DNA of 64,000 nucleotides from Nanobdellota archaeon (GTDB taxonomy: Archaea > Nanobdellota > Nanobdellia > Woesearchaeales > GW2011-AR4), in assembly GCA_038046385.1 (NCBI GenBank), contig JBBSWH010000001.1, positions 119,211-183,210 of the forward strand, in the 5' to 3' direction. A program made the translations under genes and the position numbers. Under the pieces are notes generated by a model. That model was not told where the DNA came from. It saw only the letters and a program-made list of their open reading frames with translations, and searched no databases. The stretch's first letter is position 1. Each line of letters opens with the position of its first letter. Shown here piece after piece: positions 4,430 to 62,605 of the stretch.

Positions 4430-4846
4430 ATGGTAAGACTAAACAAGTATCAGATAACCTGCAGGGAAATTTTCACAGGCACAAGAGCGCCTTTTAGCTC
4501 TGATTTCGTCTGGTACACTGGATTGGCAGATACAGCTTCTGCTGCTGAAGAATTTGTGCGTAAAGTTCGAGAATGTGATGGCGTTTGGTTCAGGAAACAT
4601 ATAGGCCAAAGGCTTACTCATGCATCTGGCCAGACAATTGAGGACTTGGTGGAGATTTCTAATGACCCTCAGACAATTTTTGTCAGCAAAGAGGCAATGC
4701 AGGAAAGAGCTGCAGTTCCTGAGGCAACGACCCAGTTGCTCGTCTGGGGATCTTATGTATACTCCTGGCAAAATGAAACAATGCAAAAATTATTGCCTGT
4801 AAAATTCTATGTTGAAAAAAGAAAACGGAAGCCTTATGACTCTTAA
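4430..4846 (+). CDS. Hypothetical protein (orphan)
   Basis: 138-aa ORF; its stop overlaps the stop of the convergent Rad50-like gene (4843-4846). Confidence 0.6.
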   Translation: MVRLNKYQITCREIFTGTRAPFSSDFVWYTGLADTASAAEEFVRKVRECDGVWFRKHIGQRLTHASGQTIEDLVEISNDPQTIFVSKEAMQERAAVPEATTQLLVWGSYVYSWQNETMQKLLPVKFYVEKRKRKPYDS

Positions 4847-6912
4847 GCCACAACACTAACGCCATCCTGCTTCTGCACTCTGATAATATTCTCAACAAAT
4901 CCTTCTATCTTGCTTTCGTGAGAAACAATAATGACCTGTTTCATGTTTAACTGCGTTAAAACATCACGGACTTTATCCAGCTGCTCTGTGGAAAACCCGT
5001 CAGTCGGCTCGTCAAGCATTATGATGTCTTTTGTCTTTATCTCGGCGACAATGTCATTGACAACTTTATTTAATGCCAGCCTGTATGCCAAAGCAACCGA
5101 TGTCTTCTCTCCGCCGCTTAAATTTTCGATATAAGTTTCATATCCGTTCTGCTCAATTATCGGAGTGAATTCATCGTCAACGCGCACATTTATCGCCTCA
5201 TCTTCAATTAAAATATCAAACCAGTTTCTGAATAAATCATTAAACTGCGAATGAATGCTTACCATGACGTGCTTCTCCATCGTTGACATCAAATTCAGGA
5301 ACATCTCGTCAATCCAGTTGCTTAACTGCGCAAGATGGGCTATCTTTTCCTTTGCCTTCTGCTTTTCTTCAATTTCCTTTTCAACGTTTTTCAAAAACCT
5401 TGATATTGACAGTTTTTCAGTCTCGTATTTTTTGTGCTCTATCTCGAGGAATCTTTCTTCCGGCAGCAGCAAATCTAGCTCTTTTTTCATTTCTTTGTAT
5501 TTTTCCTCTATGCTTGAATGCTGCTGGATTTTTAAGTTTAAATCAGATTTTTTTGAATTCAGAATCCCGATTTCTTTCTTGACTGTTTCTTTCAGCTTTG
5601 TTTTGTCATCTTTCATCCTTGATTTCTCGTCTATGTTTTCAATTTTTATTTTCAGGATGCTCATTTTATTCTGCTCCCTCATAAGACTGTCAATTTCATT
5701 TTTTAATTCTATTTTTAATTTTGATATTTTTTCATCTTCTTCATTCAATATTCTTATTTTCTCGACAAGCTCTTCGTGCTTTTCGCTTTCCCTTTCGCTT
5801 ATTCCGTGCTTATGGTCATCACCGACTTTCTGCTCGCATACAGGGCACATGTCAAGCGATTTTATTTTTTTGATTGTTTCGTTTGAATGATCTATCTTCG
5901 CTTTGCACTCGCTGATTTTTTTTACTGTTATTTTGTAATTTTCATCCAGTCTTCTCATTTCATTGTCTTTTTCAGTTATCTTTTTGCCGATGCTGTTGAA
6001 ATCCTCAAGAGACTTTCCTTCTGTCTCTGTTTTTAATGCTTCAATCTGCGTTTCAAGCTTTTTTATCTCGTCATTCAAGCGGTTGTTTTGCTCTATTCTC
6101 AACACAAGATTGTTTTCTGCAACATTTAATTCGTTTTTTAAAATTGCAAGTTCTTTAATCTCTTTTTCAACAACTTCAATTGAAAGTTTTTTTGCTCCTA
6201 CTATCTTTTTTATCTCTTCAATCTTCGGGAGCATTGCAGTCATCTTGTGGTCAATGTCGAGAATCTCTTTTTTTCTTTCTTCCAACTCTCTTTTTTTGTA
6301 ATCCAAATCAATAACAAACCCTTCAAGGTGCCGTTTTTTCTCCCTCAATGCAGATGTGATTATTTTTGCATTCTCTTTTATTGTCTTGTACTTATCAATG
6401 TTGAACACTTTTCTTAAAGTATCCAATCGCGTTTCCCTGCTTTCGTAGAGTATTTTTTTCATCTCTTCCTGCGGAGTGTAGACTGTGTACCTGTAAATCA
6501 TATCCTTCCCCTTTTTTATCAGGTCTTTTGGATAGCCTAGAATTTCTAAAACAATAGCCCTCAATTCTTCTGACGTTCCGTCTTTCTTTAATCCATTTAT
6601 TATGACATAGCCTGCTTCCTGCTTTATGTCATTTGAGCTTCTCTTCAGCGTTCTTTTTATCAGAATGTCCTTGTTTTCAATCTGCATCCTTAATTCGACG
6701 CTTCCTTCCTTTTTTCCGTGCCTGAGAAGAGTATATGCCGGCAATTCTCCTTTCTTTGCGCCGAAAATTGCAAACTCAACTGCAAGAAGTATAGTTGACT
6801 TTCCGCATCCGATGTCGCCTGACAATAAAACAGACCCGTTTGGGAAAACAATATCCTGGTTTTCATAACTTCTTATGTTGTTTAATTTAATGGATTTTAG
6901 GAGCATACGCAT
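4843..6912 (-). CDS. rad50: Rad50/SbcC-like SMC-family ATPase
   Basis: Walker A GDIGCGKS, long coiled coil with CPVC zinc hook, LSGGE signature, LDEPT Walker B, VSH. Start may be 6906. Confidence 0.88.
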   Translation of the reverse strand: MRMLLKSIKLNNIRSYENQDIVFPNGSVLLSGDIGCGKSTILLAVEFAIFGAKKGELPAYTLLRHGKKEGSVELRMQIENKDILIKRTLKRSSNDIKQEAGYVIINGLKKDGTSEELRAIVLEILGYPKDLIKKGKDMIYRYTVYTPQEEMKKILYESRETRLDTLRKVFNIDKYKTIKENAKIITSALREKKRHLEGFVIDLDYKKRELEERKKEILDIDHKMTAMLPKIEEIKKIVGAKKLSIEVVEKEIKELAILKNELNVAENNLVLRIEQNNRLNDEIKKLETQIEALKTETEGKSLEDFNSIGKKITEKDNEMRRLDENYKITVKKISECKAKIDHSNETIKKIKSLDMCPVCEQKVGDDHKHGISERESEKHEELVEKIRILNEEDEKISKLKIELKNEIDSLMREQNKMSILKIKIENIDEKSRMKDDKTKLKETVKKEIGILNSKKSDLNLKIQQHSSIEEKYKEMKKELDLLLPEERFLEIEHKKYETEKLSISRFLKNVEKEIEEKQKAKEKIAHLAQLSNWIDEMFLNLMSTMEKHVMVSIHSQFNDLFRNWFDILIEDEAINVRVDDEFTPIIEQNGYETYIENLSGGEKTSVALAYRLALNKVVNDIVAEIKTKDIIMLDEPTDGFSTEQLDKVRDVLTQLNMKQVIIVSHESKIEGFVENIIRVQKQDGVSVVA

Positions 6913-7031
6913 GTTAATGCTGGAAATTATATAAACGTTGTTGTACTTTTATTTAATTGATGATTTTGTTACTACTTAATAGGTAAGTCAAAATAGAAAG
7001 GTTTATAAATGGAGTTTGATGACTAAATTAG

Positions 7032-7973
7032 ATGGTTAGACATTCAAGGGTTAAACTTTCAACAAATAATACATTCAAAGCTCATGACGAAGGTAGTACA
7101 CTCGGAGCCACTGGGGAGCCTGCTTCTTTTAAAAGTATTGATGATGCTTTGTTCGATAGTGGAAGATTAAAGGAAAACAGTGCAATAGGTACAACTTCTC
7201 AGTTCAGCCAAGTAAATTGGAATATTCTTAATGGTTATATTGAAGGCCTTAGCAAATATCTTGCATCTAATAGGCTGGTTGTGCCTTCATCCCAAGTTCC
7301 TGATAATCTAATATTTCAGCAGGGAACAAACCCGGTTGATGTTTTAAAAACAAGGTCTGGACTTGAAGGATATCTAAAGGGAATGGAAAAATTAGCAGAC
7401 CCTTAAATAGACAGGCTTCAATTGGTTTACGATTTTTTAAATCAGAGAAACCCTGGCACAATCCCTGGCATGCAGTCTCGCGACACTCTTAAAAAATCCG
7501 CAGGATATGCTTTGGCAACAATTGTAAGAGTGTTTAGGGAAAATGGAGTAAAGCTTAGGGCAGGAGAATATCCTATTGATACAATCTCCCGCCATGCAGC
7601 AATTCAAATGGCAACCGGAAGAGCTACAAATCCGCGCGGGATGAGGAAAATAGAAAGGGAAGATTCTGAAGCAGTGCGATTTACGGATTTACTTTACAAA
7701 AGAGACGAGAATGTGGCAAGAGTATTCTTTTTGCTTGATCAAACCAGGAATTTAAGCAAAATGCATGCCAGCAGAGTTTTCGATTACACAGCTGATCCTA
7801 ATATTTTTAGGGCATTTCAAGCCGGATGTTTTGGAACTCGTTATAATCCTTTTCCAGATGAACAATCTGGTTTAGGCTCAGACACAAAAACAGGAAGGAG
7901 ATTAATGGACAGAATGGCAGTAGCATATGTAGACGGACAAAACCTTGCTGCAATGAAACAAAGACAACTTTAA
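7032..7973 (+). pseudogene. Orphan gene apparently interrupted by one in-frame TAA (7404-7406)
   Basis: ORFs 7032-7406 and 7422-7973 are in the same frame: ...GAC CCT TAA ATA GAC AGG CTT CAA TTG GTT...; a single BRE/TATA (GAAAGG TTTATAAA) at 6996-7009. Confidence 0.55.
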
Positions 7974-9165: not shown

Positions 9166-9579
9166 TTATCGCCTTTTTCTGGGACGCGGGTCAGGACCGC
9201 GCCTTCGTTTTTTATGAAAATCAGAAAGATAATGTGCAATGCCGGTTCTGCTGTTCAAAAAAGATATTGCAGTTTTGACATATTCAGCTGTATCGGCTCT
9301 TATTCTACCTTTGATATCTTCTACCGAATAATCAATACTTATACTAAAACTTTTGGAATTCTGGGCAGAGCGTCTAATGGGGGATTGTCCATCTGTCTCA
9401 CTAACCTGCCCTTCCTCATAAAAAATCTCCTCAAGCGCATGATATTTCATTAGTTTTTGCGCTTGATTAGGAGACGCTTTTGAAACTATTTCAGCTTCTG
9501 CAGCCAAACGGTCTATAGATGACTTTATTGTTCCATAGACTTCTCTATTTGGGCCATCCAATGCTTCTTGTGTTACCAT
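9166..9579 (-). CDS. Hypothetical protein (orphan, basic C-terminus)
   Basis: 137-aa ORF divergent from rpl15e. Confidence 0.6.
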   Translation of the reverse strand: MVTQEALDGPNREVYGTIKSSIDRLAAEAEIVSKASPNQAQKLMKYHALEEIFYEEGQVSETDGQSPIRRSAQNSKSFSISIDYSVEDIKGRIRADTAEYVKTAISFLNSRTGIAHYLSDFHKKRRRGPDPRPRKRR

Positions 9580-10411: not shown

Positions 10412-10795
10412 ATGGCAGTTGAAATGAATGATGGGCTAAGATATCAGATATTTTTAGCGCAGATAAATGGGAGGACAAAATTAACAGAATTACAGCAAGG
10501 CCCTCTAGAGAATATGGTTTTGTACGTTCCTCACAATTCCAGTACTCTTGATATGGCAAGCGTAACAGCATTGCCCATTAGCGTACTAGACTCAGAGTTT
10601 ATAGTTTTTATGAAGGATGAAACTCATTTGATTGAAATGAGTCGTGGTTCTACCTCACTTCAAGATGTAATAGGAGCAGCGGCCAGGGAAGCACATAAGC
10701 GATTGCATGAATTTGTAACAATTCTTCCGGCTTTTGACCCAAAAGAAGGACCGCTAAAATACTGCTTAGCATTCTATACGCCAACTGTTCAATAA
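10412..10795 (+). CDS. Hypothetical protein (orphan)
   Basis: 127-aa ORF; TATA at 10382-10389 preceded by AGTAGTTA at 10362-10369. Confidence 0.6.
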   Translation: MAVEMNDGLRYQIFLAQINGRTKLTELQQGPLENMVLYVPHNSSTLDMASVTALPISVLDSEFIVFMKDETHLIEMSRGSTSLQDVIGAAAREAHKRLHEFVTILPAFDPKEGPLKYCLAFYTPTVQ

Positions 10796-16546: not shown

Positions 16547-17182
16547 ATGAGCAACCACCACGTTTTCGGATATGCAAGCCTTATACACGAAGGAATCAGA
16601 AATTCACTTAATCTTACCGGAAAGGCTGAAATTGTAGAGGAACTTCCGGGAGTACAGAGAGTGTGGGACCCTCAAATACCAGGCTCAAAAAGGGCAAGGC
16701 TCAATCTTAAAGCAGATAAATATGCCCATACAAATGGAGTGGTGCTGCAAGTTGATGAAGCAGAACTAAGACTTCTTGACGGATTAAACAAAGGATATGC
16801 CCGAGTGCATCTGGAAGACCACATCCACGGAAAAGACAATCACCCCACTTTTCAAAGAAGAGGCATGTCCTCAACAGTTTGGATTTATTTGCCGAATGGG
16901 AACATGAATCCAACAAATCAGGGAACAGCTGAACCCGGCAAATCTGCCGCTGCGCCAGATCCAAACCCTATTGTGCAGACCTATGTTGATCAAGTTGTTA
17001 TAGGCGCTCTTCGTTTAGGCGGGCCGCACTTCGCTTATCATTTTGTCGATGCAACAAAAGGATGGCACCATCCATGGGTTAACAACAGAACCCAATCTAT
17101 TCCAGGTGCCGGGGAAGTTGATGCCGTTTTGGAAAGAATTGTAGGAAAAGAATTCAGAAAAAGAACAAATTTAAAATCATAA
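16547..17182 (+). CDS. Gamma-glutamylcyclotransferase (GGCT/ChaC)-like protein, divergent
   Basis: N-terminal VFGYASL, then NGVVLQV...LRLLD...GY. Confidence 0.6.
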   Translation: MSNHHVFGYASLIHEGIRNSLNLTGKAEIVEELPGVQRVWDPQIPGSKRARLNLKADKYAHTNGVVLQVDEAELRLLDGLNKGYARVHLEDHIHGKDNHPTFQRRGMSSTVWIYLPNGNMNPTNQGTAEPGKSAAAPDPNPIVQTYVDQVVIGALRLGGPHFAYHFVDATKGWHHPWVNNRTQSIPGAGEVDAVLERIVGKEFRKRTNLKS

Positions 17183-19969: not shown

Positions 19970-21103
19970 TTAGTGCAGTGTTCTTATTTTCTCCCACGGA
20001 AACTGGTCATTTCCGAACCAGCCCTCTGTTGCAGTTAACAGAACTAAGTTTGGATCATTCAGCCTCAATTCGCTGACTGCATCATCCCTGTCAAGAGGAA
20101 AATTTTTTCTTACTAATTCGTCCAAGCCAATTCTATCCAATGTGCTTCCTGAAGCTTCAAAATCCAGAACCATCGGCTGGCCGCTTCCTATTTTATATCC
20201 TAACCTAACTTCAATGTAATCTTTTACAACACCCTGAGCAACGAGGCTTTTTGCAATATGCCTTGCCAGAATTGATGCATGCACATCCACTTTTCCAAAA
20301 TCCTTTCCGAATATGCTGCCTCCGGTCTGATGCACCCTGTCTCCATATAAAAAACTGGGATCTTTCTTGCCTTTGACTCCTGTATCTATCAAAGGACTTC
20401 CGTGTTCAAACCTTTCAGCTCCGTTTATTGTAATCCTTGTTCTATTGGAATCGTAAAAATTTCCTAAAGCGGGTAAAATTACTTTTTGAGTAATATCATC
20501 CCTGAAACTGTTCAAATCAGCATCTGCATAATGCTGTGCCGCTACAACTACTTCAGCAGCATAGCTTGGCTTTCCATCTTCCAAAGCCAAAACCAAATTT
20601 AATTTGCCGTCAGGAGCCAGTCCTTTAATCTCTTTATTTCTAAATGCAGAATCTAATTTGTATGCCATCTCTTTAAGTAGCAGATATTCCAGCGGCATGA
20701 ATAACGCATTTTCACTTGTAGCATACCCATGCTTAACGATTGTGTCCCCTGCGCCGCCGTTGCTTACAGAATGATCAATATCCGGAGACTGGCCTTTGAA
20801 ATCAACGCGTATCTCTCTTGCTTCCGGATCGTAGCCGTTTTGGGGGGAATAGCCTGCCTGCCTAAGCAATTGTCTTGCAGTTTCAGCCATCTCTTCCCTT
20901 GTTAAAGGCCCACTGGAACGGTTTTGTGCAGTAATAAATAATATGTCGTTAAGAGTTACATTCAAATCAAGCCTTGATTCCGAATCCCTTCTCAAAGATT
21001 CTGCAAGAATTTTCTGGGAGATGACATTGCCTAAACCGTCCGGATGGGCAAATCTTTCTCTTTGCACTGTCAATTTATCATAGTTTAGATTATAAGTTGC
21101 CAT
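19970..21103 (-). CDS. metK: Highly divergent bacterial/eukaryotic-type S-adenosylmethionine synthetase-like protein
   Basis: HPD, QSPDI, GAGD, PDGK, DTGVKGKK, GGSIFGKDFGKVD, ARHIAKSLVA and FPWEK appear in MetK order. Confidence 0.75.
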   Translation of the reverse strand: MATYNLNYDKLTVQRERFAHPDGLGNVISQKILAESLRRDSESRLDLNVTLNDILFITAQNRSSGPLTREEMAETARQLLRQAGYSPQNGYDPEAREIRVDFKGQSPDIDHSVSNGGAGDTIVKHGYATSENALFMPLEYLLLKEMAYKLDSAFRNKEIKGLAPDGKLNLVLALEDGKPSYAAEVVVAAQHYADADLNSFRDDITQKVILPALGNFYDSNRTRITINGAERFEHGSPLIDTGVKGKKDPSFLYGDRVHQTGGSIFGKDFGKVDVHASILARHIAKSLVAQGVVKDYIEVRLGYKIGSGQPMVLDFEASGSTLDRIGLDELVRKNFPLDRDDAVSELRLNDPNLVLLTATEGWFGNDQFPWEKIRTLH

Positions 21104-21164: not shown

Positions 21165-21208
21165 TTTTATCACCAATGTTTATTAATAAGGATAGAATTC
21201 CGTATATT

Positions 21209-21535
21209 ATGGATTATACAAAACAAAGGGAATTGGCAGTACAGCAATTGGCAACAGCACAAATTTTCTATCAGGCGCATTTAAGATCAGAAGGGATTAA
21301 AGACCCTACAGCAGAGGTAAGATATGACGAGCATCTTGGATTTATAGGTGTTCCAGGCATCAAAAGAAAAGGAATAGGGCATCCTGAAGGCAGAGAAGGG
21401 TTATGTGATATTCTTGAACCAATAGTAATTGAAATCAACAGGGCAAATGCAGGATTGAAACCCTTAGATAAAGACCTTGTAGCACGCCTTAAACTCCATT
21501 CTCCAAACGGAACGCTTGCAAGAATAGTTGCTTGA
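21209..21535 (+). CDS. Hypothetical protein (orphan)
   Basis: ORF from the track; start moved to ATG 21209 based on the TATA at about 21179. Confidence 0.6.
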   Translation: MDYTKQRELAVQQLATAQIFYQAHLRSEGIKDPTAEVRYDEHLGFIGVPGIKRKGIGHPEGREGLCDILEPIVIEINRANAGLKPLDKDLVARLKLHSPNGTLARIVA

Positions 21536-21581: not shown

Positions 21582-24317
21582 TTATTTAGAATACGCTGCC
21601 TGCATCTTTTCTACCCAAGGTCTCCAGATTTCTTCGGGAACAGTAAACCTGAGGTCTGTGAAATTGCTTCTGAAGTCTATGACTTCTGATCTTACATCTT
21701 CTCCTCTTTCCCCTCTAACAGCAAGCTTGACTGCCTCCACAGTTGCGTCTTCTTTCATTCCAAATCTTGTCATCTCCTGGAACCCCCACCTGTTTCCGCT
21801 TGCCCCCATGAAAAGTATATCGTCGAATAAAGTCGAAGAGCTTGTGATTATATTGTTCGACTCCAACCTTCTTGCAGTGCTTTTGCCTTGGTACTTATCT
21901 GTTCTTGTCAAAACTTGATGGGTATCCGGCATCCTCTTTGTCACTACATCTATTCCCTCGTTCCTAAATGCAGCCCATGCAGATCTAGCATTATTGACAA
22001 CCTGCGGAGCATATTCATGATTAAACATAGCCTCTTCGCGTGCTGCAAAAAGATGAGCAAGCTTTGCTCCAAGATGAGTGTTGCTATGATAAACTAAATG
22101 TCTCCTCAAAACAGCCTGATAAAGAGGGTCATTAAATGGCCTATTAGAAGCAATAAATGTGCTATTTTTTGGACCAAAATTGGTTTTAGCGGTGTATCCT
22201 GCAAAATCTGCTCCGTAAGGATACTTAGACAATCCTCCAATATGTGCTCTGTCTTCAAAAAGAACTGGCCTGTCTGGATTATCTCTTCCGTATAATCTGT
22301 CAAGCATGAGCCTTATTGCTTCCGTTGGCGGCCTGAATGGTATTGCACTTCCGCCAGTTATTATTATGTCTGGTCTGACTCTTACAACCAGTTTTTCCAA
22401 TCCTTCAAGATCATAATCATAAGGAGAATCTCTCCTCATTGGTATGTTATACCATTTTGGCATCCCATGTTCATCATGTTCCAGATAATCTTTTAACCCT
22501 AAAGATGCTTGTGAGCTTATGTGGCCTCCGTCGTTTAATGCCACACTTATTGCAACCAATCCCCGTGGCCTGATTCTTTTTCTATTCACATAATCTTTGG
22601 TTCCGCCAAAAACCATATGATTGTTTATTGTACCAGAGTTTATAATCCCGATTACATTTGCTGCGCCCGTATTTGCTCTTAACTGCGCAAGAAGCAATTC
22701 TTCAACACCAGCCCCTAGACTTCCTTCAGGGGAACCCTTCATCATAAAATCTGTGCCTTGATAATACGCAAAATCTTCTCCAAGCGCCCTTACAATTGAA
22801 TGTTCATTATATCTGTGGGAAGGGTCAAGAGTCATTAGTGCTCTCACAGCAGGAGAAATTGTATTTTCAGAAGCAGTAAAATTAAGCGTTTCAAATTGGC
22901 GCCATCTTGTATTTGCAACAGCGTCGTGAACAAGTGCATCTCCAAGATCACTTATTGTTCCAGGATAAACAGGAACCCTTCTCGGCTCTGCAAGAGGACC
23001 GAATGAGGGTCTTGAGTAAGGAACCCCTCCAAGTAAATTTGTATCAGTCAGTCTAGCATCCAGACCGGCGATTATTTTGTCTTTGTCTCCAACCTGGAAG
23101 ATTATTTCTTTTGTCGGGTCGAATCTTATGTTAGAATCTATCAATGCCATTCCGACTGATCTTTTCATAGAACTGTCCCAGGAATCGGCTGGTTTTGAGT
23201 ATACTCCTTCTCCTTCAAAATGAGAGTAAGGCGCATAAAGTCCAGTTGTAACGACACCGACTTCTTTACCTTCGTAATAAAGTTTCATTCCTGCTCTTAG
23301 CGATCTTTCACCTGATGGAACAACCAATGACCTGATCATTCTTTTAAGAACAAGGTCATCAAGTGTAACACTCTCCCCTCTCTCTATCCTCTCAAAATCT
23401 CTCCTTTGCACTTCAAGAGCTCCCCTACCTATGAATTTTCTGGTCGGGTCTGCAAGATTAACTCCGAATTTCGCTTGCGTCACTGAATGAATCAGCAACT
23501 CATCACTTATCTCGTGTCCATAAAGCGGAAGACCTGCTTCTGTTCTTGCGCCGTCTCTGGATGCCAAGCCTGCAAACATAAGATTATATGGACGTCCTGC
23601 AGCCGCAAGGTCTTCTACGACTTTTGGAGCTTTTTTTGAATCAACTCTTATCTCCATAGCAACTACTTCCCCAGTATATCCGGTCCTGGAGATGCGCATT
23701 GCAGTGCCATCATGATAAATCGTTGAGCCGTAATTTCTTTTTGCCTTGGGAAGCCATCCACTATACCCGGGCATTGATAACAATGAGTTCATTATTAATT
23801 CTGAATTGGGACCTTGCAATGATATCATTGCTTCATCATGAGTCTTGTTTTCTATGGTGACATCTTTAAATCTGTCCTGACTTATTTTTAGGACCCTGTT
23901 TATCCATTTCCAGTCTTTTTCCCTGTTTCCTGCATTGACAACGAGGGTGTATTCATCTTTACCATCAGCAAAAAGGATTGTGTCATCAATTGCACGTCCT
24001 TTAGAGTTTGACAAAAAGCCATAAACAGCTTGCGGACCGATCATCCCTTCATGGTCAAGGACATTTGCATCGCTTGTCAAAAGATATCTCAAGAATTCTT
24101 TTGCATCTTTGCCAGTAAACCTGTACCTACCCATATGGCTTACGTCGAAAAGTGCAGCAGTTTTTCTTACTGCAACCCCTTCCTGAAAAGCATGAGAAAA
24201 CTGAACCGGCATCTCAGTGCCGCCAAAATCTTTTAATGACAATCTTCCCGGTTCTGCATACTTAGAGTAATAGGGATGCAACACAGTCTTCTCTAACCCG
24301 CTACCTTGTTCACTCAA
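21582..24317 (-). CDS. GcvT aminomethyltransferase - serine hydroxymethyltransferase (GlyA)-like fusion
   Basis: GcvT half: FDVSHMG, VVNAGN, SLQGP, SRTGYTGE, RTEAGLPLYGHE. SHMT half: ASEN, YYQG, GGHIS, DRAHIGGL, TAKTNFGP (PLP Lys), EMTRFGM. TTG start with GGTGG Shine-Dalgarno. Confidence 0.85.
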   Translation of the reverse strand: MSEQGSGLEKTVLHPYYSKYAEPGRLSLKDFGGTEMPVQFSHAFQEGVAVRKTAALFDVSHMGRYRFTGKDAKEFLRYLLTSDANVLDHEGMIGPQAVYGFLSNSKGRAIDDTILFADGKDEYTLVVNAGNREKDWKWINRVLKISQDRFKDVTIENKTHDEAMISLQGPNSELIMNSLLSMPGYSGWLPKAKRNYGSTIYHDGTAMRISRTGYTGEVVAMEIRVDSKKAPKVVEDLAAAGRPYNLMFAGLASRDGARTEAGLPLYGHEISDELLIHSVTQAKFGVNLADPTRKFIGRGALEVQRRDFERIERGESVTLDDLVLKRMIRSLVVPSGERSLRAGMKLYYEGKEVGVVTTGLYAPYSHFEGEGVYSKPADSWDSSMKRSVGMALIDSNIRFDPTKEIIFQVGDKDKIIAGLDARLTDTNLLGGVPYSRPSFGPLAEPRRVPVYPGTISDLGDALVHDAVANTRWRQFETLNFTASENTISPAVRALMTLDPSHRYNEHSIVRALGEDFAYYQGTDFMMKGSPEGSLGAGVEELLLAQLRANTGAANVIGIINSGTINNHMVFGGTKDYVNRKRIRPRGLVAISVALNDGGHISSQASLGLKDYLEHDEHGMPKWYNIPMRRDSPYDYDLEGLEKLVVRVRPDIIITGGSAIPFRPPTEAIRLMLDRLYGRDNPDRPVLFEDRAHIGGLSKYPYGADFAGYTAKTNFGPKNSTFIASNRPFNDPLYQAVLRRHLVYHSNTHLGAKLAHLFAAREEAMFNHEYAPQVVNNARSAWAAFRNEGIDVVTKRMPDTHQVLTRTDKYQGKSTARRLESNNIITSSSTLFDDILFMGASGNRWGFQEMTRFGMKEDATVEAVKLAVRGERGEDVRSEVIDFRSNFTDLRFTVPEEIWRPWVEKMQAAYSK

Positions 24318-38346: not shown

Positions 38347-38447
38347 ACGATAAGAATTATCAAACACCATTTATAAATCTTTCGATATTGTAACTACTAA
38401 GAAGTTATAACTTAATTAGCAAGAAAAAACAAAATAAAAAGAGCTAC

Positions 38448-47596: not shown

Positions 47597-48415
47597 ATGC
47601 CAAACAAAAAGCCAAACATTGCGGTCGTTTACTTTCCCGGCAACAACTGCGAAGAGGAATCTTTGAAAGCAGCTCTTGCAGCAGGAATGGACGGGAAGAT
47701 TGTAAGATGGAATGAAAGAAAAGGAATTGAAAAATACGACGGATATATCATTCCGGGCGGCTGGGGATATGAAGACAGAATACGCGCAGGAGTTATCGCG
47801 GCAAAAGATCCTGTTTTTGCAATCATAAAAAAAGAGTCTGAAAAAGGAAAACCAGTTCTTGGTATTTGCAACGGCGCGCAGGCTTTGGTGGAATGCGGCA
47901 TGATTCCTGGATTAAAAAACAAAGTCGAGATGGCACTTGCGCCAAATATCAATCCTTTTGTGAGTGGATATTACTGCACATGGGTTCATTTGAAAAACAC
48001 AGAAAATCAGTCAAGATGTGCTTTCACAAAATTTACAGGAAAAGATGAAGTTATCCCGGTCCCGATTGCGCACGGAGAAGGGAGATTTACGACAAACGAC
48101 AAGGATTTGATGAAAGAACTTGTTAAAAACAAGCAGATAATCTTCAAATATTCTACTAAAGACGGTAAAATAGACAATAAGTTTCCAACAAACCCAAACG
48201 GAGCAATGCTTAACATTGCAGCAGTCTGCAACAAGAAAGGAAATGTGATGGCAATCATGCCTCATCCTGAACGTGCAACATTCATAAGGCAATTGCCCTA
48301 CATTACGAGCTTGAAAAACAACGCAGCAGGCAAGCTTGCAGAAATGGAAAAGCCGGCTCCGGCAATGAAATTATTTGATTCGATGAAGAAATATATCGAA
48401 GAGGAATTATTATAA
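47597..48415 (+). CDS. purQ: PurQ glutaminase subunit
   Basis: FPGNNC, GICNG, AHGEG and MPHPER motifs. Confidence 0.95.
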   Translation: MPNKKPNIAVVYFPGNNCEEESLKAALAAGMDGKIVRWNERKGIEKYDGYIIPGGWGYEDRIRAGVIAAKDPVFAIIKKESEKGKPVLGICNGAQALVECGMIPGLKNKVEMALAPNINPFVSGYYCTWVHLKNTENQSRCAFTKFTGKDEVIPVPIAHGEGRFTTNDKDLMKELVKNKQIIFKYSTKDGKIDNKFPTNPNGAMLNIAAVCNKKGNVMAIMPHPERATFIRQLPYITSLKNNAAGKLAEMEKPAPAMKLFDSMKKYIEEELL

Positions 48416-48441
48416 TAATGGGCGAGCTGGTTAATAAATAA

Positions 48442-49701
48442 TTATTTGAACTGATAATTTCTGGGTATGAACACATGACCATTAGGGGACAGTGTGAATC
48501 TCCTTGCAACGTCTTCTTCATGATAAATTCCTATTCTTGTGTTGTCTGGAATGTGTACTCCTTTATCTACAACTCCTTTGTTAATTCTTACATTTCTCCC
48601 GGTTCCATTGTTTCCCATAAATATTGTTTCCGTCATTTCTCCATGATCTCCGACTTCAGTGTTATACCCAACAATACAATCGTCAAGCCTGCTTTTTTTC
48701 CCAATTGATACACCATTTGCAAGTACAGATCCGGTTACATCTCCTGCGTTAACAATTTGTTTTCCATGGGATTCGTCAAAAGTCACTATGGGCCAGCCAG
48801 GATTTTCAAGGCGCAATGGAGGATGTGTGCCGGTCAGGTCAAGATTAGCCTCAACAAATTGATCAAGTGTCCCTACATCTCTCCAATAACCGGTTGTTTT
48901 AACTTGATTAGGGGTGTTTCTTGTATAATCATACATCCTGACTTTCCTGCCTTCCCTTAAATAATGAGGAATTACATCAAAACCAAAATCATGAACTGAG
49001 TACAAACTTGGGTTGGCCCTAACCAAATCCTTATTTTCTTCATCTGCTGTTCTTTTCTTTGCATCAACTGTTAAGGCAGTAACAAGAGAATTTCTATTAA
49101 ATACATAATTCCCCATAGATGCCCAGCAGAAATTTTCATTTCCGGGAATAGGCGCGGGATCCGATGGCTTTTCCTGAAATCCTATAACATTGCCATTTTC
49201 ATCGGCAACAAGAACTCCAAAAGTGTTGGCAGCCAAGTCTCTCCTGACTGGCATGGCGGCTATAGTTAAATCTGATTTACTATCGAGATGGAACTGCTTC
49301 ATTTGAGAAATGTCCATTAAGTATACATGATCACCCGCAAATACAGAAACCAGTTGTGGCTTTTGTGATGTTATTAATCCTAAATTTCTATACACAGCAT
49401 CAGCAGTTCCTAAGTAATGGCCATGTTCAGGGTGGACTACTCTGATAAATTCAGCACCTTCCTGCTCAAAAACAGGTTTCCAGGCGTGTTCTATATGCCT
49501 CTCTAAAGAAGCTGGCTTGTATTGCGCCACAACTACTATATTTCTGCTGCCGGAATTATAATGATTGTTAAGGGGAAAATCTATTATCCTCCATTTTCCT
49601 CCAAAAGGGCTTGCTGGCTTTGCCCTATCTTGGGTTATGGGGAATAACCTTTTTCCCTGGCCACCTGCTAAAATGATATCGAGAGATGTTACCTGTTTCA
49701 T
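48442..49701 (-). CDS. glgC: Glucose-1-phosphate adenylyltransferase (ADP-glucose pyrophosphorylase)
   Basis: LAGGQGKRL, RAKPA.PFGG, GTADAV, GDHVY, FQEKP, SMGNY, DFG and YWRDVGT motifs. Confidence 0.9.
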   Translation of the reverse strand: MKQVTSLDIILAGGQGKRLFPITQDRAKPASPFGGKWRIIDFPLNNHYNSGSRNIVVVAQYKPASLERHIEHAWKPVFEQEGAEFIRVVHPEHGHYLGTADAVYRNLGLITSQKPQLVSVFAGDHVYLMDISQMKQFHLDSKSDLTIAAMPVRRDLAANTFGVLVADENGNVIGFQEKPSDPAPIPGNENFCWASMGNYVFNRNSLVTALTVDAKKRTADEENKDLVRANPSLYSVHDFGFDVIPHYLREGRKVRMYDYTRNTPNQVKTTGYWRDVGTLDQFVEANLDLTGTHPPLRLENPGWPIVTFDESHGKQIVNAGDVTGSVLANGVSIGKKSRLDDCIVGYNTEVGDHGEMTETIFMGNNGTGRNVRINKGVVDKGVHIPDNTRIGIYHEEDVARRFTLSPNGHVFIPRNYQFK

Positions 49702-49819
49702 AGGTCTAGTTAAGATTATTGCTTTAAAAGCCTTTCTGTTTATAACTACTAAATAGAAGCAACATATACATATTTCTTAGAAATATTTATTTGCGCATTA
49801 ATCCATAATTATTTAAATA

Positions 49820-49885
49820 AAATTATTTGACTTGATGAATAGGCATATTGAAGATGAAGCGCTATAATACTAGGCGAGCTGGTTA
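49820..49885 (+). repeat. Diverged duplicate of the purQ 3' end (48368-48433)
   Basis: Ungapped 66-bp alignment, 52/66 identical by manual count; KLFDLMNRHIEDEAL* versus KLFDSMKKYIEEELL*. Confidence 0.85.
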
Positions 49886-50498: not shown

Positions 50499-51266
50499 AT
50501 GAACAAAGTTTTGGTTATATTCGGCTCAAAGACAGACGAAAAAGTCTACAATGAAATAGTTTCAACATTAAAAAAGCTAAAAGTTCCTTATGAGCTAAGA
50601 GTCAGTTCGGCGCACAAGACTCCGGATGATGTTGAAAAAACACTTGAAAATGATTATTCCGTTGTGATTGCAGGCGCAGGACTGGCTGCGCATTTGCCGG
50701 GCGTTGTTGCAGCAAAAGTAATGCGGCCTGTAATTGGAGTGCCTTGTGAAGGAAACTACCAGGGATTGGATTCTTTGCTTTCAATTGCGCAAATGCCTCC
50801 GGGAATTCCTGTTCTTGCTGTTGGAGTCGGACAGGCAAAAACTGCTGCTGAAAACTGCGCAAAGATGATGAAAAAATATGAAGCAGTAACATTAATAGGA
50901 GATAGGGACAACGAAGCTGTAAAAAAATGTGTTGAGACATTAAAAAAGTTTGATGTCGCCTATGTCTTTGAAGACAAGCCAAATCCTGCAACAGTCAACA
51001 TCGAATTCACTTATTTTGACGAGCCTGTTGAAAAGAAAGACGAGCTTGTAATATACTGCCCATTATTGCTTTCAAAAGACGATAGGGCAGAAGCTTCAAT
51101 TAATTTTCTGAAGCATACAAACCACGGATTGTGGGTTGGACTGAATAATGGCGTTAATGCCGCAGTTGCTGCAGTTGAAATTCTAAATATGGACAACAGC
51201 TTTGAAGAGCTTCTTTCCATGTACAGAAGGGAAATGGGAAAGAAAGTTCTGGATGCAAACAAATGA
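50499..51266 (+). CDS. purE: PurE (N5-CAIR mutase/AIR carboxylase) with degenerate second PurE-like domain
   Basis: GSKTD, SAHKTP, GAGLAAHLPG, PVIGVP and QMPPGIPV motifs; C-terminal half ends NGVNAAVAAVEIL. Confidence 0.88.
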   Translation: MNKVLVIFGSKTDEKVYNEIVSTLKKLKVPYELRVSSAHKTPDDVEKTLENDYSVVIAGAGLAAHLPGVVAAKVMRPVIGVPCEGNYQGLDSLLSIAQMPPGIPVLAVGVGQAKTAAENCAKMMKKYEAVTLIGDRDNEAVKKCVETLKKFDVAYVFEDKPNPATVNIEFTYFDEPVEKKDELVIYCPLLLSKDDRAEASINFLKHTNHGLWVGLNNGVNAAVAAVEILNMDNSFEELLSMYRREMGKKVLDANK

Positions 51267-51838
51267 ATGGGACGGAGAGTAATCTGATAACTCAGATTGC
51301 AGAATGGTTTGCAAATGAAGACAACCTCGACGGACTTCAAAGACAAGCAGAGAGGATAGTCCCGGGATACGGAGAAGATGTGGTTCATCAAACTTATGCC
51401 AAAGCTTATGACTATTTAGTTAGACATCCGGATTTTGTTCTTAGAAAATCAATAAATCGGTGGGTTTATGCCTTAGCCAGGAACGCAGCATTAGATATTC
51501 TAAAACACGATAAATCTGTGAGGCCTTATCAAGATTATATTGCCTCTTTGTTTTATGGTGAAGACCCAACACCTTTTCTTGACACAACTTTAGGAGAGAC
51601 AGAAGAAGTGACTTTAGCGCGCATAGTTAATGAAGAGGTATCCAGACTGCCGCAGATTAATCGTGAAGTTATAATATTACATTATTATGAAAGAAAGGGA
51701 TACCCAGATATAGCAACATTGCTAGGCATAGGAATAAGTGCAGCAAAACAGAGGGCATTTAAAGGAAGGGGCATATTAAGCGAAGCAATTCTTTCCCGCG
51801 TTCAAAACATCCCTTATTGTTTAGAATCTGCAGCGTGA
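51263..51838 (+). CDS. Sigma-70 family ECF-type sigma factor-like protein
   Basis: Region 2 EDVVHQTYAKAY...RWVYALARNAALDILK; region 4 LPQINREVIILHYYE..GYPDIA.LLGI.ISAAKQRAFKGR. Confidence 0.8.
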   Translation: MNGTESNLITQIAEWFANEDNLDGLQRQAERIVPGYGEDVVHQTYAKAYDYLVRHPDFVLRKSINRWVYALARNAALDILKHDKSVRPYQDYIASLFYGEDPTPFLDTTLGETEEVTLARIVNEEVSRLPQINREVIILHYYERKGYPDIATLLGIGISAAKQRAFKGRGILSEAILSRVQNIPYCLESAA

Positions 51839-53073: not shown

Positions 53074-53097
53074 ATTCTCATGCTGTTGCGCTGATTA
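53074..53097. repeat. Perfect 24-bp duplicate of the marC 3' end (53542-53565)
   Basis: ATTCTCATGCTGTTGCGCTGATTA at both positions. Confidence 0.92.
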
Positions 53098-53102: not shown

Positions 53103-53453
53103 TTACGGAAAGAATTGTCCCTGTTGCCTTATCTCATCCCTTTTTGCTGCATCTTTGACTGGACTAGTGTAAGCTGTAAGAACTGCATCATTTCTATACA
53201 CTAAATTTCCATCGGAATCAAATATTTGAAAAATTCCTGTTCCGTGTCCTGCAAATACTGAATGTCCTCCTGCTAAATTAACAAAGTACCTAGGACTAAT
53301 GTCCATCACAATTCCCTTATTTTCCACAAGGTCCGGATTAAATGCTTCTTTGACTTTTAATGTAGCCCTCTTCCCGATAAGCGCCTTAGCTATACTCTCG
53401 TCTGAAGGCTGAGGACTCTGGACTGTTTCATGAATTCCACTAATATCAACCAC
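53103..53453 (-). CDS. Hypothetical protein (orphan) inside 24-bp direct repeats
   Basis: 116-aa ORF, GTG start, with its own TATA. Confidence 0.6.
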   Translation of the reverse strand: MVDISGIHETVQSPQPSDESIAKALIGKRATLKVKEAFNPDLVENKGIVMDISPRYFVNLAGGHSVFAGHGTGIFQIFDSDGNLVYRNDAVLTAYTSPVKDAAKRDEIRQQGQFFP

Positions 53454-53545
53454 CTTTAACCACTAAAAAATAGATATTATATAAAAATGTTTTTAATGTG
53501 ATAATAACCAATTAGAACAATATTAAAACGCCAATTACTCTATTC

Positions 53546-54133
53546 TCATGCTGTTGCGCTGATTATGGCGATTGTGCCGCTTGCAATCATTTCAATTGCG
53601 ACTGCTGTTAAAAATAATCCCAATATCCTTGAACTTATGTCCACAATATGTATGTTTACTCTGGGAACAGAATAGGCAAAAAGAATGAAAACTATTCCTA
53701 CCAGTATGAATGCCATAAAAAGGTTGAAAAGAATGGCTGCCTGGCCTATCTCGTATGCTTTTATCGTTATGAAAGAAATTGTAGCAGGGCCAGTAAGCAA
53801 AGGGGTTGCGATTATTGAGATGAGGCCTTCTACCCCTTCAACTTTTGCCTCTTTTTCGTGCTTTGGCTTTATTGTATCAAGGCCAAGCAGAAGCAATACT
53901 ACTCCACCTGCAATCCTGAATGAGTTTAAGGAAATTCCAAATAGGCTGAACAATGAAGGGCCTACAACCGCAATTATGACTGCAATGACAAAAGCAGTTA
54001 CAACGGAGATAAAAGCCACTTTCTTGACATTCATCTTCTGCTTATAGGCGCTCATCAGCAAAGGAAAAGATGACAGCGGATTAAGCAGTACGAATATCTG
54101 GATTATAAGTGCCAAGCTTGGTGCGAATGCCAT
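53546..54133 (-). CDS. MarC family membrane protein
   Basis: LNPL, FGISLNSFRIAGG, PLLTGPATI and RILGLFL.A.A.EMI motifs. Confidence 0.9.
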   Translation of the reverse strand: MAFAPSLALIIQIFVLLNPLSSFPLLMSAYKQKMNVKKVAFISVVTAFVIAVIIAVVGPSLFSLFGISLNSFRIAGGVVLLLLGLDTIKPKHEKEAKVEGVEGLISIIATPLLTGPATISFITIKAYEIGQAAILFNLFMAFILVGIVFILFAYSVPRVNIHIVDISSRILGLFLTAVAIEMIASGTIAIISATA

Positions 54134-56721: not shown

Positions 56722-57678
56722 ATGCCTAAATGGAATTTTATAAATGGTTTGGATAACCAAGTAATTGAATCAGTTGATCCAAGGTGGGTATCGGCATTAG
56801 AAGTTGCTTTAACCTCTCAGGCTACCCCTGATCAATCAGGATATCACGTAAATGCTGGCGGTGTTACAAAAAAAGGCAACTTTGTTTCAGGCTCTAATCA
56901 TGAGATGGCAATAACAGATACAGTAACTCATGGTGAAGAAGCAGTTATTGTTGCCGCATTGGAAACGTTTGGAAGGGAAGATCCTATTGAAGTAATCGCT
57001 TTTGCAGGGTTGGGCGGCGGTGAAATTGCAAGCCCATGCGGCAATTGCAGAGACAGCATAAGGCAATATGCTGATCCAAATAATTTGGTAATAATCAATG
57101 CCCCAAGGGAAGGGGGAAAAGCAGTCCTTGTTCCCGGCCGCGCGTATTTCAAATCCGATTTTATCGAAGTGAAAGAGACAGGAGAATTAAGATTTGCGGC
57201 AATAAAACAAGCAGTACTGGCTGAACAATCTGCTTATGATATCTATTCAACAAAATCCAGCCCTAAGATTTATGGTGCAGTTATTGCATGTGAAAATGGA
57301 AGTATTTTCAGAGGCAGTTTTAGGGGAGATGTAGCTTATCATCCTGATTTGCCAATTTCTGCTGCTATTGCTAATTTTCGCGACGGCAGTGATGATCCAA
57401 GCAGAAAAAGTATAAGGGAAATAGTAGTTGCCAGCACTGGAAGCATTCCTGATGTAATGTATAAAGACAGGCAGCATGCTTTAGAGCTTGCTGAAGCCAT
57501 GCAGTCATTGAATGGAAGATCCGGAAACCCCTTGCCGGTATATTTAGTCAACATGGGAAATGACGGTTCTATGAAAATCTTTAAGACAGATACCAATGAA
57601 TGGTTGCCGCATAGGTTTTCACCTAAACATTTGGGATTAGAAGGCGCAATGGCAGGCAGTTATGCCAAACTGTTTTGA
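56722..57678 (+). CDS. Two-domain cytidine deaminase-like protein
   Basis: HGE...PCGNC in domain 1; domain 2 lacks the Zn ligands. Confidence 0.8.
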   Translation: MPKWNFINGLDNQVIESVDPRWVSALEVALTSQATPDQSGYHVNAGGVTKKGNFVSGSNHEMAITDTVTHGEEAVIVAALETFGREDPIEVIAFAGLGGGEIASPCGNCRDSIRQYADPNNLVIINAPREGGKAVLVPGRAYFKSDFIEVKETGELRFAAIKQAVLAEQSAYDIYSTKSSPKIYGAVIACENGSIFRGSFRGDVAYHPDLPISAAIANFRDGSDDPSRKSIREIVVASTGSIPDVMYKDRQHALELAEAMQSLNGRSGNPLPVYLVNMGNDGSMKIFKTDTNEWLPHRFSPKHLGLEGAMAGSYAKLF

Positions 57679-61900: not shown

Positions 61901-62183
61901 TTTGGAAGAAAACAAGGTAAAAGTTGAGACTCTTTACTGGCCAGATGAGCCAAAAGAGCCAAACGTTTTGACTTATATTCAGGAAAAGAAAATCGACCTT
62001 GTGATTAATATTCCAAAAACCCTTGAAAATCAGGAATTGGAAAATGATTATACTATAAGGAGAAAGGCAGTTGACTTCAATATTCCGCTTTTAACCAACG
62101 CCCAGATTGCAAAGCTCTTCATAGAGTCAATCTGCAAGAAAAAGATGGAAGAGCTGGAAATCAAGGCGTGGGACGAATATTAG
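58980..62183 (+). CDS. carB: Carbamoyl-phosphate synthase large subunit
   Basis: [11 protein letters not shown], two ATP-grasp halves and a C-terminal MGS domain. Confidence 0.98.
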
Positions 62184-62185
62184 GA

Positions 62186-62605
62186 TTAACTTCTTTTAGT
62201 ACTTTGATAAAGTTCTCTTACTTGATCAATTAAAAGTCTTGTGTTGTATGGTTTTGTATGATGAAAATCAAAATCGACACCTTGAGTTAATCCCAAATCT
62301 CCTGTTGGAGAAATTCCAGAATCAGCAACAATTACCATTTTACATTTTTCTTTTATTCTTTTAACTAAATCAGACGACATGCTAAACTTATCTGACGTGC
62401 CAGAATTATTTATTACATTAAATGGGTCTACTATAACGACTTGGTATACTCCATTATTCAGTCCAGCTTCAACCAAAGAGAAGTTATTATTTGCATCAAC
62501 TAGGTTAGGAAATTCTCTTTCTAATTCTTCTAATTCAAATGTCGCTTGTGTAAGGTCATCAAGCATTAAAATTCTTTTGCCTTCTGCTTCAGTTACAGTT
62601 TTCAT
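62186..62605 (-). CDS. Divergent CheY-like receiver-domain protein (orphan)
   Basis: KRILMLDD...YQVVIVDP...DFHHTKPY; start ATG 62605. Confidence 0.6.
   Translation of the reverse strand: MKTVTEAEGKRILMLDDLTQATFELEELEREFPNLVDANNNFSLVEAGLNNGVYQVVIVDPFNVINNSGTSDKFSMSSDLVKRIKEKCKMVIVADSGISPTGDLGLTQGVDFDFHHTKPYNTRLLIDQVRELYQSTKRS

Follow-up and report, generated by a model that had tools for sequence, protein, structure and literature searches.

The subject of this analysis is a set of lysine-poor genes that lie, mostly one at a time, among the conserved operons of a 64,000-nt stretch of the genome of a Nanobdellota archaeon of the Woesearchaeales (NCBI GenBank assembly GCA_038046385.1, contig JBBSWH010000001.1, positions 119,211 to 183,210 of the forward strand). 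This whole stretch is hereafter the window, C1:119211-183210 in our genome set, where the assembly is G000. The Lys-poor singletons probably represent the flexible part of the genome and would be, for the most part, foreign genes of bacterial type that are only partly adapted to their host. In our judgement the compositional contrast with the neighbouring genes more probably marks flexible single-gene cassettes than a functional programme. The proposal that Woesearchaeota move single promoter-plus-gene cassettes, duplicating 24-95 nt of the target gene end, is better supported than that of an effector arsenal.

According to this explanation, foreign, mostly bacterial-type genes would circulate and turn over within the Woesearchaeales lineage. 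Each would be transcribed as a small unit of its own, in many cases from an archaeal-type promoter motif that it carries itself, and would occupy either a gap between genes or the end of a core gene in a backbone of conserved synteny. Synonymous sites would already be at the AT-rich neutral equilibrium of the host, with little codon selection, and protein composition would lag behind the Lys-rich, basic host proteome, constrained positions retaining donor-type residues. Such genes would evolve faster than the core and be gained, lost and relocated one at a time, and some insertions would duplicate 24-95 nt of the neighbour's end, leaving that gene intact.

Genome and data sets

The assembly measures 1.28 Mb on 19 contigs, has 38% GC and is 85% complete. 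By Pfam scan, the window encodes archaeal markers (ribosomal protein L15e, thermosome and diphthamide synthase) and also a bacterial-type DnaK-DnaJ-GrpE set. The Woesearchaeota names on homologues of window proteins fit a DPANN host, and the sequencing runs that contain window words are groundwater metagenomes. Open reading frames (ORFs) were taken from a naive caller as the longest ORF of at least 80 aa, and some short lysine-poor (K-poor) ORFs in this set could be spurious. Genome-wide conservation was scored by reciprocal best hits against one congener, G046 (whole genome, 1.62 Mb, 93% complete). Family scans used Pfam, NCBIfam, PHROG and PADLOC. A word-index search covered 5.8 billion proteins; it needs shared 5-mers, so that an outcome of self only is weak evidence.

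Composition, codon usage and promoters

A first-pass annotation of the window had listed about 20 single genes among the core operons as poorer in Lys and richer in Arg, Asp, Ala and Pro than their neighbours. All 21 listed ORFs exist at the coordinates given for them, save that the gene placed at 21209 is in fact ORF 21176-21535. Twenty of them are in our gene set; ORF 40858-41361, with a lysine share of lysine plus arginine, K/(K+R), of 0.42 and a GC content at third codon positions (GC3) of 0.29, was dropped from the greedy ORF set for its 67-nt overlap with the 3' end of the glucokinase gene. The list itself was incomplete, since ORF 7422-7973 (K/(K+R) 0.28) fits the class and had been left off. 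Below, alien genes are the 21 listed ORFs (20 in the gene set), plus 7422-7973 where n = 22.

The compositional contrast is real and strong (20 listed against 45 other window ORFs, Mann-Whitney, p about 1e-7). Listed ORFs contain 5.4% Lys against 10.5% in the others (p = 3e-7) and 5.9% Arg against 3.3% (p = 6e-5), which gives a K/(K+R) of 0.47 against 0.75 (p = 2e-7), and pooled Ala, Pro, Gly, His and Asp are elevated relative to the rest of the window. Overall GC is equal, whereas its distribution over codon positions is shifted: GC1 is 0.515 against 0.464 (p = 2e-5), GC2 0.381 against 0.325 (p = 1e-4) and GC3 0.308 against 0.393 (p = 3e-7). The alien proteins are predicted to be acidic (median isoelectric point, pI, 5.9 against 8.8 for comparison proteins) and soluble, a hydrophobic segment resembling a transmembrane helix being found in 5% of them against 33% of the comparison proteins. 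A low lysine share by itself does not identify an alien gene: L15e and the DEAD-box helicase at 2801-4225 are K-poor and yet conserved core.

The codon dialect of the alien genes matches that of the core, with AGR making up 85% of Arg codons, ATA 48% of Ile and GCA 51% of Ala codons. Donor-type synonymous usage was sought in the window codon counts and not found; the genes therefore did not arrive recently from a distant donor. Alien genes favour C- and G-ending codons less than the core does (TAC 0.25 against 0.43, CAG 0.44 against 0.65), and their GC3 of 0.31 is about that of intergenic DNA (GC 0.323), the core lying at 0.39. This suggests that the synonymous sites are at neutral equilibrium without codon selection, which would make low expression of these genes probable. 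A motif resembling the B recognition element and TATA box (BRE/TATA) lies upstream at the expected distance in 11 of 20 alien ORFs against 353 of 1271 other ORFs (p = 0.011).

Genome-wide distribution and conservation

Lineage specificity and composition are linked. The two gene populations that had been proposed are recovered among the 346 ORFs of at least 100 aa without a G046 homologue, for which a two-component fit is favoured (delta BIC, Bayesian information criterion, 20) with K/(K+R) means of 0.76 (61% of the genes) and 0.49 (39%); the means fitted for G046-conserved genes lie close together, at 0.77 and 0.65. A four-feature Gaussian mixture favours more than one component genome-wide, which is weak evidence. 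When ORFs of at least 100 aa were divided by lysine share and GC3, the shares with a reciprocal best hit in G046 were as follows.

K-poor, low GC3: 3 of 64 ORFs (4.7%)
K-poor, normal GC3: 44% of 89 ORFs
K-rich, low GC3: 32% of 155 ORFs
K-rich, normal GC3: 646 of 891 ORFs (72.5%)

The contrast between the extreme classes (3/64 against 646/891) is highly significant (Fisher p = 1e-28). Along K/(K+R) alone, the share rises from 13% at 0.4 or below (n = 47) through 25% at 0.4-0.5 (n = 93) to 60-70% at 0.55 or above, and in a logistic fit K/(K+R), GC3 and length were independent predictors of conservation. The reverse test gave the same picture: K-poor, low-GC3 ORFs of G046 itself were matched in 12% of cases, typical ones in 73%. 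In the window, any match in G046 was found for 3 of 20 alien ORFs against 36 of 45 others (p = 1e-6).

Genome-wide, 130 of 1291 ORFs (10%) are K-poor and without G046 homologue, and 64 of 1199 ORFs of at least 100 aa (about 5%) carry the strict marker. The dispersal that had been described for the window extends to the genome, as the 130 ORFs form 92 singletons, 13 pairs and 4 triples in near-random scatter; in the test for multi-gene blocks, 92 of 109 runs consisted of one gene each.

Synteny and occupation of slots in congeners

Synteny of the block Rad50-PGI-L15e-480aa-HTH-GrpE-DnaK extends to 17 congeners, at protein identities of 46-91%. None of the ORFs 2801, 4430, 7032, 7422, 9166, 10412 and 16547 was located in the syntenic regions of these congeners. 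Among the seven, 2801-4225 is the conserved DEAD-box helicase, with a G046 ortholog at another place; the other six are alien genes. The corresponding slots of the congeners vary in size, from 13 bp where core genes abut up to 5.8 kb, and the ORFs inside them are mutually unrelated and in many cases K-poor; their comparison with the window aliens gave zero matches. Between purE and purC, a sigma-like gene is found in G000 and a VapBC-like pair in G046. The suggestion that these genes evolve separately from the core is borne out in that nearly all are private to the species or patchy within the genus and the shared ones diverge faster than their neighbours. Thus, the MetK-like gene is 48% identical in the congener G006, whereas canonical MetK is 86% identical in G046.

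Two Lys-rich genes also interrupt conserved gene orders. At 47011-47595 a 194-aa ORF of low GC3 (0.26) lies between purL and purQ and overlaps both; it has neither a Pfam match nor a G046 homologue, and purL and purQ directly overlap in G046 and L128. A CxxCxxCC-domain gene at 13978-14496 (K-rich) lies between grpE and dnaK, flanked by 46-nt repeats (13871-13916 and 14507-14552, 78% identical) that are a duplicated AT-rich, promoter-like stretch. Its ortholog in G006, G020 and G046 lies past dnaK, beside the HD and dnaJ genes.

Insertion scars and the GlgC cassette

Some units are flanked by direct repeats that duplicate the end of the adjoining core gene.

53103 ORF, 468-bp unit: repeat of 24 nt, 100% identical, duplicating the last six codons and stop of MarC
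53074..53097 (+): direct repeat copy 1 of the 53103 unit, 24/24 identical to copy 2
53542..53565 (+): direct repeat copy 2 of the 53103 unit, comprising the last six codons and stop of MarC (53546-54133, -) and 4 nt
GlgC, 1452-bp unit: repeat of 70 nt, 79% identical, duplicating the purQ 3' end
48364..48433 (+): direct repeat copy 1 of the GlgC unit, the 3' end of the purQ-like gene plus 18 nt
49816..49885 (+): direct repeat copy 2 of the GlgC unit, a decayed purQ 3' end running into a hairpin element similar to repetitive extragenic palindromes (REP-like)
48426..49826 (no strand assigned): GlgC cassette (promoter and gene), the sole stretch homologous to two Nanoarchaeia contigs from metagenome-assembled genomes (MAGs)
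C5:73871 ORF: repeat of 95 nt, 99% identical, duplicating the adjoining core gene 3' end
C2:51696 ORF: repeat of 45 nt, 87% identical, duplicating the adjoining core gene 3' end
C11 proC site: repeat of about 37 nt in three copies, the proC 5' end, around two successive units

Of 230 accessory units, 5 have non-AT direct repeats on both sides, compared with 3 of 875 core units (p = 0.012), and two of the three repeat-flanked "core" units are themselves cassettes. No inverted repeat was found around the 53103 unit. At the proC site (C11:52752-56830), one unit is a 193-aa K-rich ORF and the other a run of three low-GC3 ORFs without G046 homologue, two of them K-poor (K/(K+R) 0.23 and 0.41) and one a repeat-rich ORF of 464 aa at 0.69; the outermost copy of the proC 5' end retains a decayed start codon.

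The GlgC cassette lies at a different locus in G000 than in the two Nanoarchaeia MAGs, to which it is 82% identical in nucleotides and 81% in amino acids. In both MAGs and in G046, glgC sits between the thermosome and glucokinase genes; GlgC of G046 is only 38% identical to that of G000. From these comparisons, GlgC is an old K-poor resident of the genus that was relocated in G000 as a promoter-plus-gene cassette of 1.4 kb, and the cassette landed in a REP-like hairpin element at the purQ/purS junction. Perfect inverted repeats of 11 nt stand exactly at its ends (48435-48445 and 49805-49815), which, being AT-rich, are only suggestive. In a second pair, GlgC of the congeners G046 (C3:119707-120924) and L128 (L128:4506-5765), the proteins are 38% identical at the same locus and the flanking genes 70-76% identical, so that either a distant allele has replaced the gene in place or divergence has been extreme.

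In the REP-like module two hairpins, GCTGGTTATGGTGCCAGC and TTGTCCGAAGGACGG, precede an A-rich AATAACGAA tract. It is present in at least nine intergenic copies, mostly between co-directional core genes, and is not specific to alien genes (window 49886-49981 and 13815-13874; C1:29734, C2:42398, C5:96162, C6:147778 and 161767, C10:34925, C11:50703).

GcvT-SHMT and partial amelioration

The GcvT-SHMT fusion protein (21582-24317) belongs to a large bacterial family and is 36-38% identical to bacterial proteins of about 885-890 aa with proteobacterial names. Its positional ortholog in G020 is 44% identical, against 55 and 76% for the flanking core genes and 49-87% for core genes matched on the same G020 contig. 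The three archaeal copies form one clade, with terminal branches of 2.1-2.4 substitutions/site where the median is 0.2; since the copies fail the composition test, their true branches are probably shorter. The median K/(K+R) of the bacterial homologues is 0.23, against 0.39-0.49 in the three archaeal copies. Within the archaeal copies, K/(K+R) rises from 0.30 at bacterially conserved columns through 0.46 at intermediate to 0.58 at variable columns, where Lys reaches 11.6%; this gradient was tested in one family. It shows for this family partial amelioration of the classical kind, in which the amino-acid signal outlasts the synonymous one, a course that the other families may have followed as well. 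At the other end, the DnaK-DnaJ-GrpE set, described as bacterial in origin by one study (PMC8204110), is fully Lys-rich (K/(K+R) 0.72-0.83) and conserved. Recent transfers with short branches from unrelated donors, which the first-pass annotation had named as a refuting outcome, were not seen: long branches were found instead, and two families have their nearest relatives among other Woesearchaeota.

Several observations weigh against this explanation of the Lys-poor singletons, or narrow it. The bimodality check on all 1291 ORFs returned a single peak of K/(K+R) with a left shoulder, so that two populations are not separated in the genome as a whole. Accessory status alone does not make a gene K-poor, because 61% of the genes without G046 homologue are Lys-rich. 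No donor was identified for any gene. The nearest matches of GcvT-SHMT are two Woesearchaeota proteins (43-44%), one of them the positional ortholog in G020, and the nearest named relatives of the M29-like protein are likewise Woesearchaeota. The sigma-like and 53103 proteins returned only themselves in the word-index search. For the ORFans, which have no relatives found, foreign origin is assumed, and bacterial donors of the family-less ORFs are therefore put forward as conjecture. GlgC is K-poor (0.43-0.52) throughout the genus; because it stayed so, K-poor composition can last long. No more than about 3% of accessory units have flanking repeats, and how the insertion works enzymatically is likewise conjectural. 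The 53103 insertion looks recent by its identical repeats and yet has the native dialect; its source must be a close relative or the same genome.

Alternative explanations

That the alien genes are instead native, fast-evolving or newly born genes, drifting under weak constraint towards the composition of the codon table at 38% GC, is unlikely. Their Lys (4.8-5.4%) and Arg contents (5.8-6.3%) do lie near the random-codon expectation of 5.1 and 7.0%, 13 of 22 match no NCBIfam family (E <= 0.01) and 12 of those no Pfam family either, the two ORFs tested by word-index search have no relatives, and the codon dialect is native with GC3 at intergenic level. However, Cys (0.5%), Ala (7.5%) and Gly (7.8%) depart from the 3.2, 3.9 and 3.9% expected at random, and Asp and Glu stand at about 6% against 3.2%. 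At least ten window aliens belong to known protein families, that of GcvT-SHMT being plainly bacterial, and the Lys-rich majority (61%) of lineage-specific genes also argues against such drift. As a further native origin, overprinting by frameshift or antisense reading was considered and ruled out: six-frame translations of 18 alien regions, compared with the ORFs of G000, G046 and G006, gave flank overlaps only, plus one weak M29-like paralogue. It is quite unlikely that the genes are cargo of viruses, plasmids or non-autonomous elements, some of it serving anti-defence or takeover, although as a statement about the vehicle this would be compatible with a flexible, partly ameliorated gene pool. 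PHROG matches of the MetK-like (186 bits) and sigma-like proteins, the PPP phosphatase and GlgC are consistent with it, as are the match of the neighbouring Bro-N protein (24485-25339) to PDC-S13, a candidate defence family of PADLOC (389 bits), the gene-end direct repeats, the terminal inverted repeat of the GlgC cassette and the presence in the genome of three tyrosine-recombinase (Phage_integrase) ORFs, none in the window, and of one Y1 transposase ORF; DDE_Tnp_1 and TnpB-type domains were not found in the 85%-complete assembly. In contrast, the Pfam scan of the window returned no integrase, capsid or replication gene, 17 of the 22 aliens have no PHROG match, the units are single genes in near-random scatter, and that at 53103 lacks an inverted repeat.

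The first-pass annotation had gone further and proposed, speculatively, a separately evolving gene class that might comprise effectors or mimics acting in a host cytoplasm, or a stage-specific programme. An acidic, Lys-poor set drawn from bacteria and shaped by an arms race in such a cytoplasm is very improbable, and we give little credence to its specific form, a species-private, bacterial-derived arsenal (ECF sigma-, receiver-, ChaC/GGCT- and MetK-like proteins, among others) with which an episymbiotic archaeon would manipulate a bacterial host. In its favour, the families are odd for an archaeon, above all an extracytoplasmic function (ECF) sigma factor with no bacterial RNA polymerase to serve and a ChaC/GGCT-like protein. 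The products are also acidic where the proteome at large is basic, and they are species-private and evolve fast. PMC8204110 reports that Woesearchaeota have sigma-70 genes unaccompanied by anti-sigma factors, and considers bacteria as possible hosts. Nevertheless, the check for shared terminal signals gave no 3-mer excess over controls at either end (shared 3-mers per pair 0.136 against 0.149 +/- 0.011 at the N-end and 0.112 against 0.179 +/- 0.014 at the C-end), and no export machinery was linked to the aliens, secretion systems themselves not having been searched for. Amelioration together with weak codon selection suffices to account for the composition, genes so weakly adapted in their codons are unlikely to be deployed in abundance, and GlgC and the M29-like, PPP and deaminase-like proteins are ordinary cytoplasmic enzymes. 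Nor do the genes cohere as one class. In a within-genome search no alien matched another; matches were those of the MetK-like protein to canonical MetK, of the SHMT half to GlyA and of GlgC to other nucleotidyltransferases. PADLOC matched 0 of 22 aliens, only two DEAD-box helicases and the Bro-N neighbour being hit, and PHROG matched 5 of 22. An artefact (spurious ORFs, binning contamination or chimeric assembly) is extremely unlikely. The naive caller, the many short, family-less ORFs and the odd composition would fit one, but the ORFs measure 105-911 aa at 38% GC, are interleaved with core genes on one contig, share the native dialect and archaeal-type promoters, and have positional orthologs in G006 and G020. 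Moreover, all 20 tested ORFs obtain their best score in the frame in which they were called, a test in which stop codons introduce a bias, and of the words sampled from window 47001-57000, five runs from two studies contain 76% or more.

Relation to known systems

That acquired genes can have an atypical composition, and that DPANN archaea contain genes of bacterial type, is already known; the signature itself and the gene-end-duplicating cassette moves are modestly new. The amelioration model of horizontally acquired genes, said to go back to Lawrence and Ochman, shares with our case the atypical composition, the patchy distribution, and fast sites at host equilibrium with constrained sites lagging. 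Unlike in that model, the synonymous sites are here fully native and even AT-richer than in the core, the remaining signal is in the amino acids (Lys against Arg, pI), and single genes are concerned, not islands.

As in the available passages on bacterial-type families of DPANN archaea (Castelle et al. 2021, PMC8204110), which describe sigma-70 factors as prevalent among Woesearchaeota, this genome has a sigma-70/ECF-like gene without an anti-sigma factor, DnaK-DnaJ-GrpE and other bacterial-type enzymes. In those passages the phrase "amino acid composition" occurs 0 times, and here the old imports are Lys-rich and conserved and the private ones Lys-poor. Genomic islands and integrative elements with att sites resemble the units described here in the direct repeats of 3' ends around an insert (MarC 24, purQ 70, elsewhere 95 and 45 nt), whereas the inserts in our case are 0.47-1.45 kb long, hold one gene and no integrase, have repeats of variable length and, at proC, duplicate a 5' end three times. 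Integron gene cassettes are likewise single-ORF mobile units, and at C11 two successive units are parted by the same repeat of about 37 nt; in contrast to integrons, the units are dispersed outside one array and have their own promoters, and neither an attC-like fold nor IntI was seen, no search aimed at them having been made. A private arsenal, if real, would parallel in an archaeon the sets of host-derived effectors found in intracellular bacteria.

A gene that combines a low K/(K+R) and an acidic pI with a GC3 like that of intergenic DNA and a promoter of its own can be flagged as flexible and foreign-derived in ultra-small archaea; the marker is cheap, needs the sequence alone, and in these genomes falls mostly on unannotated genes. 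Turnover would proceed gene by gene within otherwise frozen operons, as in the pur operon with its three insertions, and the scars that duplicate gene ends point to an undescribed route of single-gene acquisition or relocation in DPANN archaea. The data give no support for a new functional system.

Genes of the window

The alien genes are as follows.

4430..4846 (+): K-poor singleton, 138 aa, K/(K+R) 0.47
7032..7406 (+): singleton, 124 aa, GC3 0.24; no match in the family scans, 17 congeners or G046
7422..7973 (+): K-poor ORF of the same class, 183 aa; no match in the family scans, 17 congeners or G046
9166..9579 (-): K-poor singleton, 137 aa; no family, absent from the congener regions and G046
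10412..10795 (+): K-poor singleton, 127 aa; no family, absent from the congener regions and G046
16547..17182 (+): GGCT/ChaC-like protein, 211 aa, between dnaK and an HD-domain gene; no congener match
19970..21103 (-): divergent MetK paralogue, 377 aa; TIGR01034 212 bits, below the equivalog cut-off of 309
21176..21535 (+): K-poor ORF, 119 aa; no family
21582..24317 (-): GcvT-SHMT fusion, 911 aa; bacterial-type family
26313..26630 (-): K-poor ORF, 105 aa; no family
27455..27865 (-): singleton, 136 aa; one hydrophobic segment
31879..32433 (+): receiver-domain-like protein, 184 aa; Response_reg 18 bits, below cut-off
34312..35403 (-): divergent M29-peptidase-like protein, 363 aa; recognised via relatives
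37477..38370 (-): PPP-family phosphatase, 297 aa; Metallophos 68 bits
40274..40633 (+): K-poor ORF, 119 aa; no family, relatives carry 300aa-GlgC-207aa-502aa at the same place
40858..41361 (+): K-poor ORF, 167 aa, overlapping the glucokinase gene 3' end
44068..44553 (-): K-poor ORF, 161 aa; no family
48442..49701 (-): GlgC-type glucose-1-phosphate adenylyltransferase, 419 aa, in the pur operon; NF002023 380 bits, cut-off 458
51263..51838 (+): ECF sigma-like protein, 191 aa, between purE and purC (ATGA overlap)
53103..53453 (-): ORFan, 116 aa, with its own TATA-like promoter motif
56722..57678 (+): tandem cytidine-deaminase-like protein, 318 aa; dCMP_cyt_deam_1 and _2, TIGR01354 44 bits against a cut-off of 114
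62186..62683 (-): singleton, 165 aa, GC3 0.18; receiver-like by eye only

The recognisable proteins are predicted to be divergent members of known, mostly bacterial-type families. Among the family assignments made earlier, those of the ECF sigma-like, MetK-like, GcvT-SHMT, GlgC and PPP proteins are upheld by profile or PDB matches and that of the M29 peptidase via relatives, whereas GGCT and receiver are leads from the Atlas. To call the proteins degenerate was an overstatement, as catalytic or near-invariant residues are intact in the PPP, M29-like and deaminase-like proteins where checked. In the PPP phosphatase the motifs GDxHG, GDxVDR and GNHE are kept as GDTHGD, GDYVDR and RGNHE (PDB alignment), and in the deaminase-like protein HxE and PCxxC as HGEE and PCGNC (by eye). 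The M29-like protein has 148 representatives at E<1e-3, the best full-length relatives being 37-39% identical, and one match within 42 congeners. Twenty of 30 aligned family members match PF02073, the query itself having no Pfam match; it agrees with the family at 19 of 20 near-invariant columns, including E196, E281, E303, H308, H328 and D330, which we take to be metal-binding, the sole mismatch being G for the family's A at column 310.

The MetK-like protein is 34% identical to canonical MetK (C1:19285) and has an ortholog only in G006 (48-49% identity) among 40 relatives; several of its motif positions look altered when the alignment is read by eye. In the sigma-like protein, Pfam recognises region 4 only (Sigma70_r4_2, 38.5 bits), TIGR02937 reaches 41.5 bits against a cut-off of 42.9 over model positions 15-164 of 165, and 42 congeners gave three weak matches. 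For the protein at 4430..4846 the scans returned Pfam AtaL alone (E 0.005, 17 bits, cut-off 27), with no match in NCBIfam, PHROG, PADLOC or G046. As leads only, the GGCT/ChaC-like protein has an Atlas feature score of 0.95 and a TM-score of 0.77 to bacterial GGCT clusters, and the receiver-like protein at 31879..32433 a feature score of 0.93 and a TM-score of about 0.6 with bacterial neighbours. The receiver-like aliens are not clearly orphans, given three canonical receiver genes elsewhere in the genome and an 883-aa ORF with a strong HATPase_c match, which is probably a histidine kinase.

At 31698-31790, 88 nt from the receiver-like ORF, lies a 93-nt tRNA gene whose anticodon ARAGORN left unresolved (Rfam tRNA 39.8 bits) and which probably contains an intron. 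The Bro-N domain protein at 24485-25339 is Lys-rich, adjoins the MetK-like/GcvT-SHMT island and is missing at the same place in G006, G020 and G046. Just upstream of carA (57907), at 57695-57850, three tandem copies of a motif containing CCGAAACCAGCGAAAAT are spaced about 52 nt apart; G046 lacks orthologs of carA-carB. Between the PGI gene and ORF 9166-9579, an element of about 180 bp (8980-9160) resembles a miniature inverted-repeat transposable element (MITE), with terminal inverted repeats of about 25 nt, and its inner 86 bp recur on contigs C3, C5, C17, C9 and C13 at 87-93% identity.

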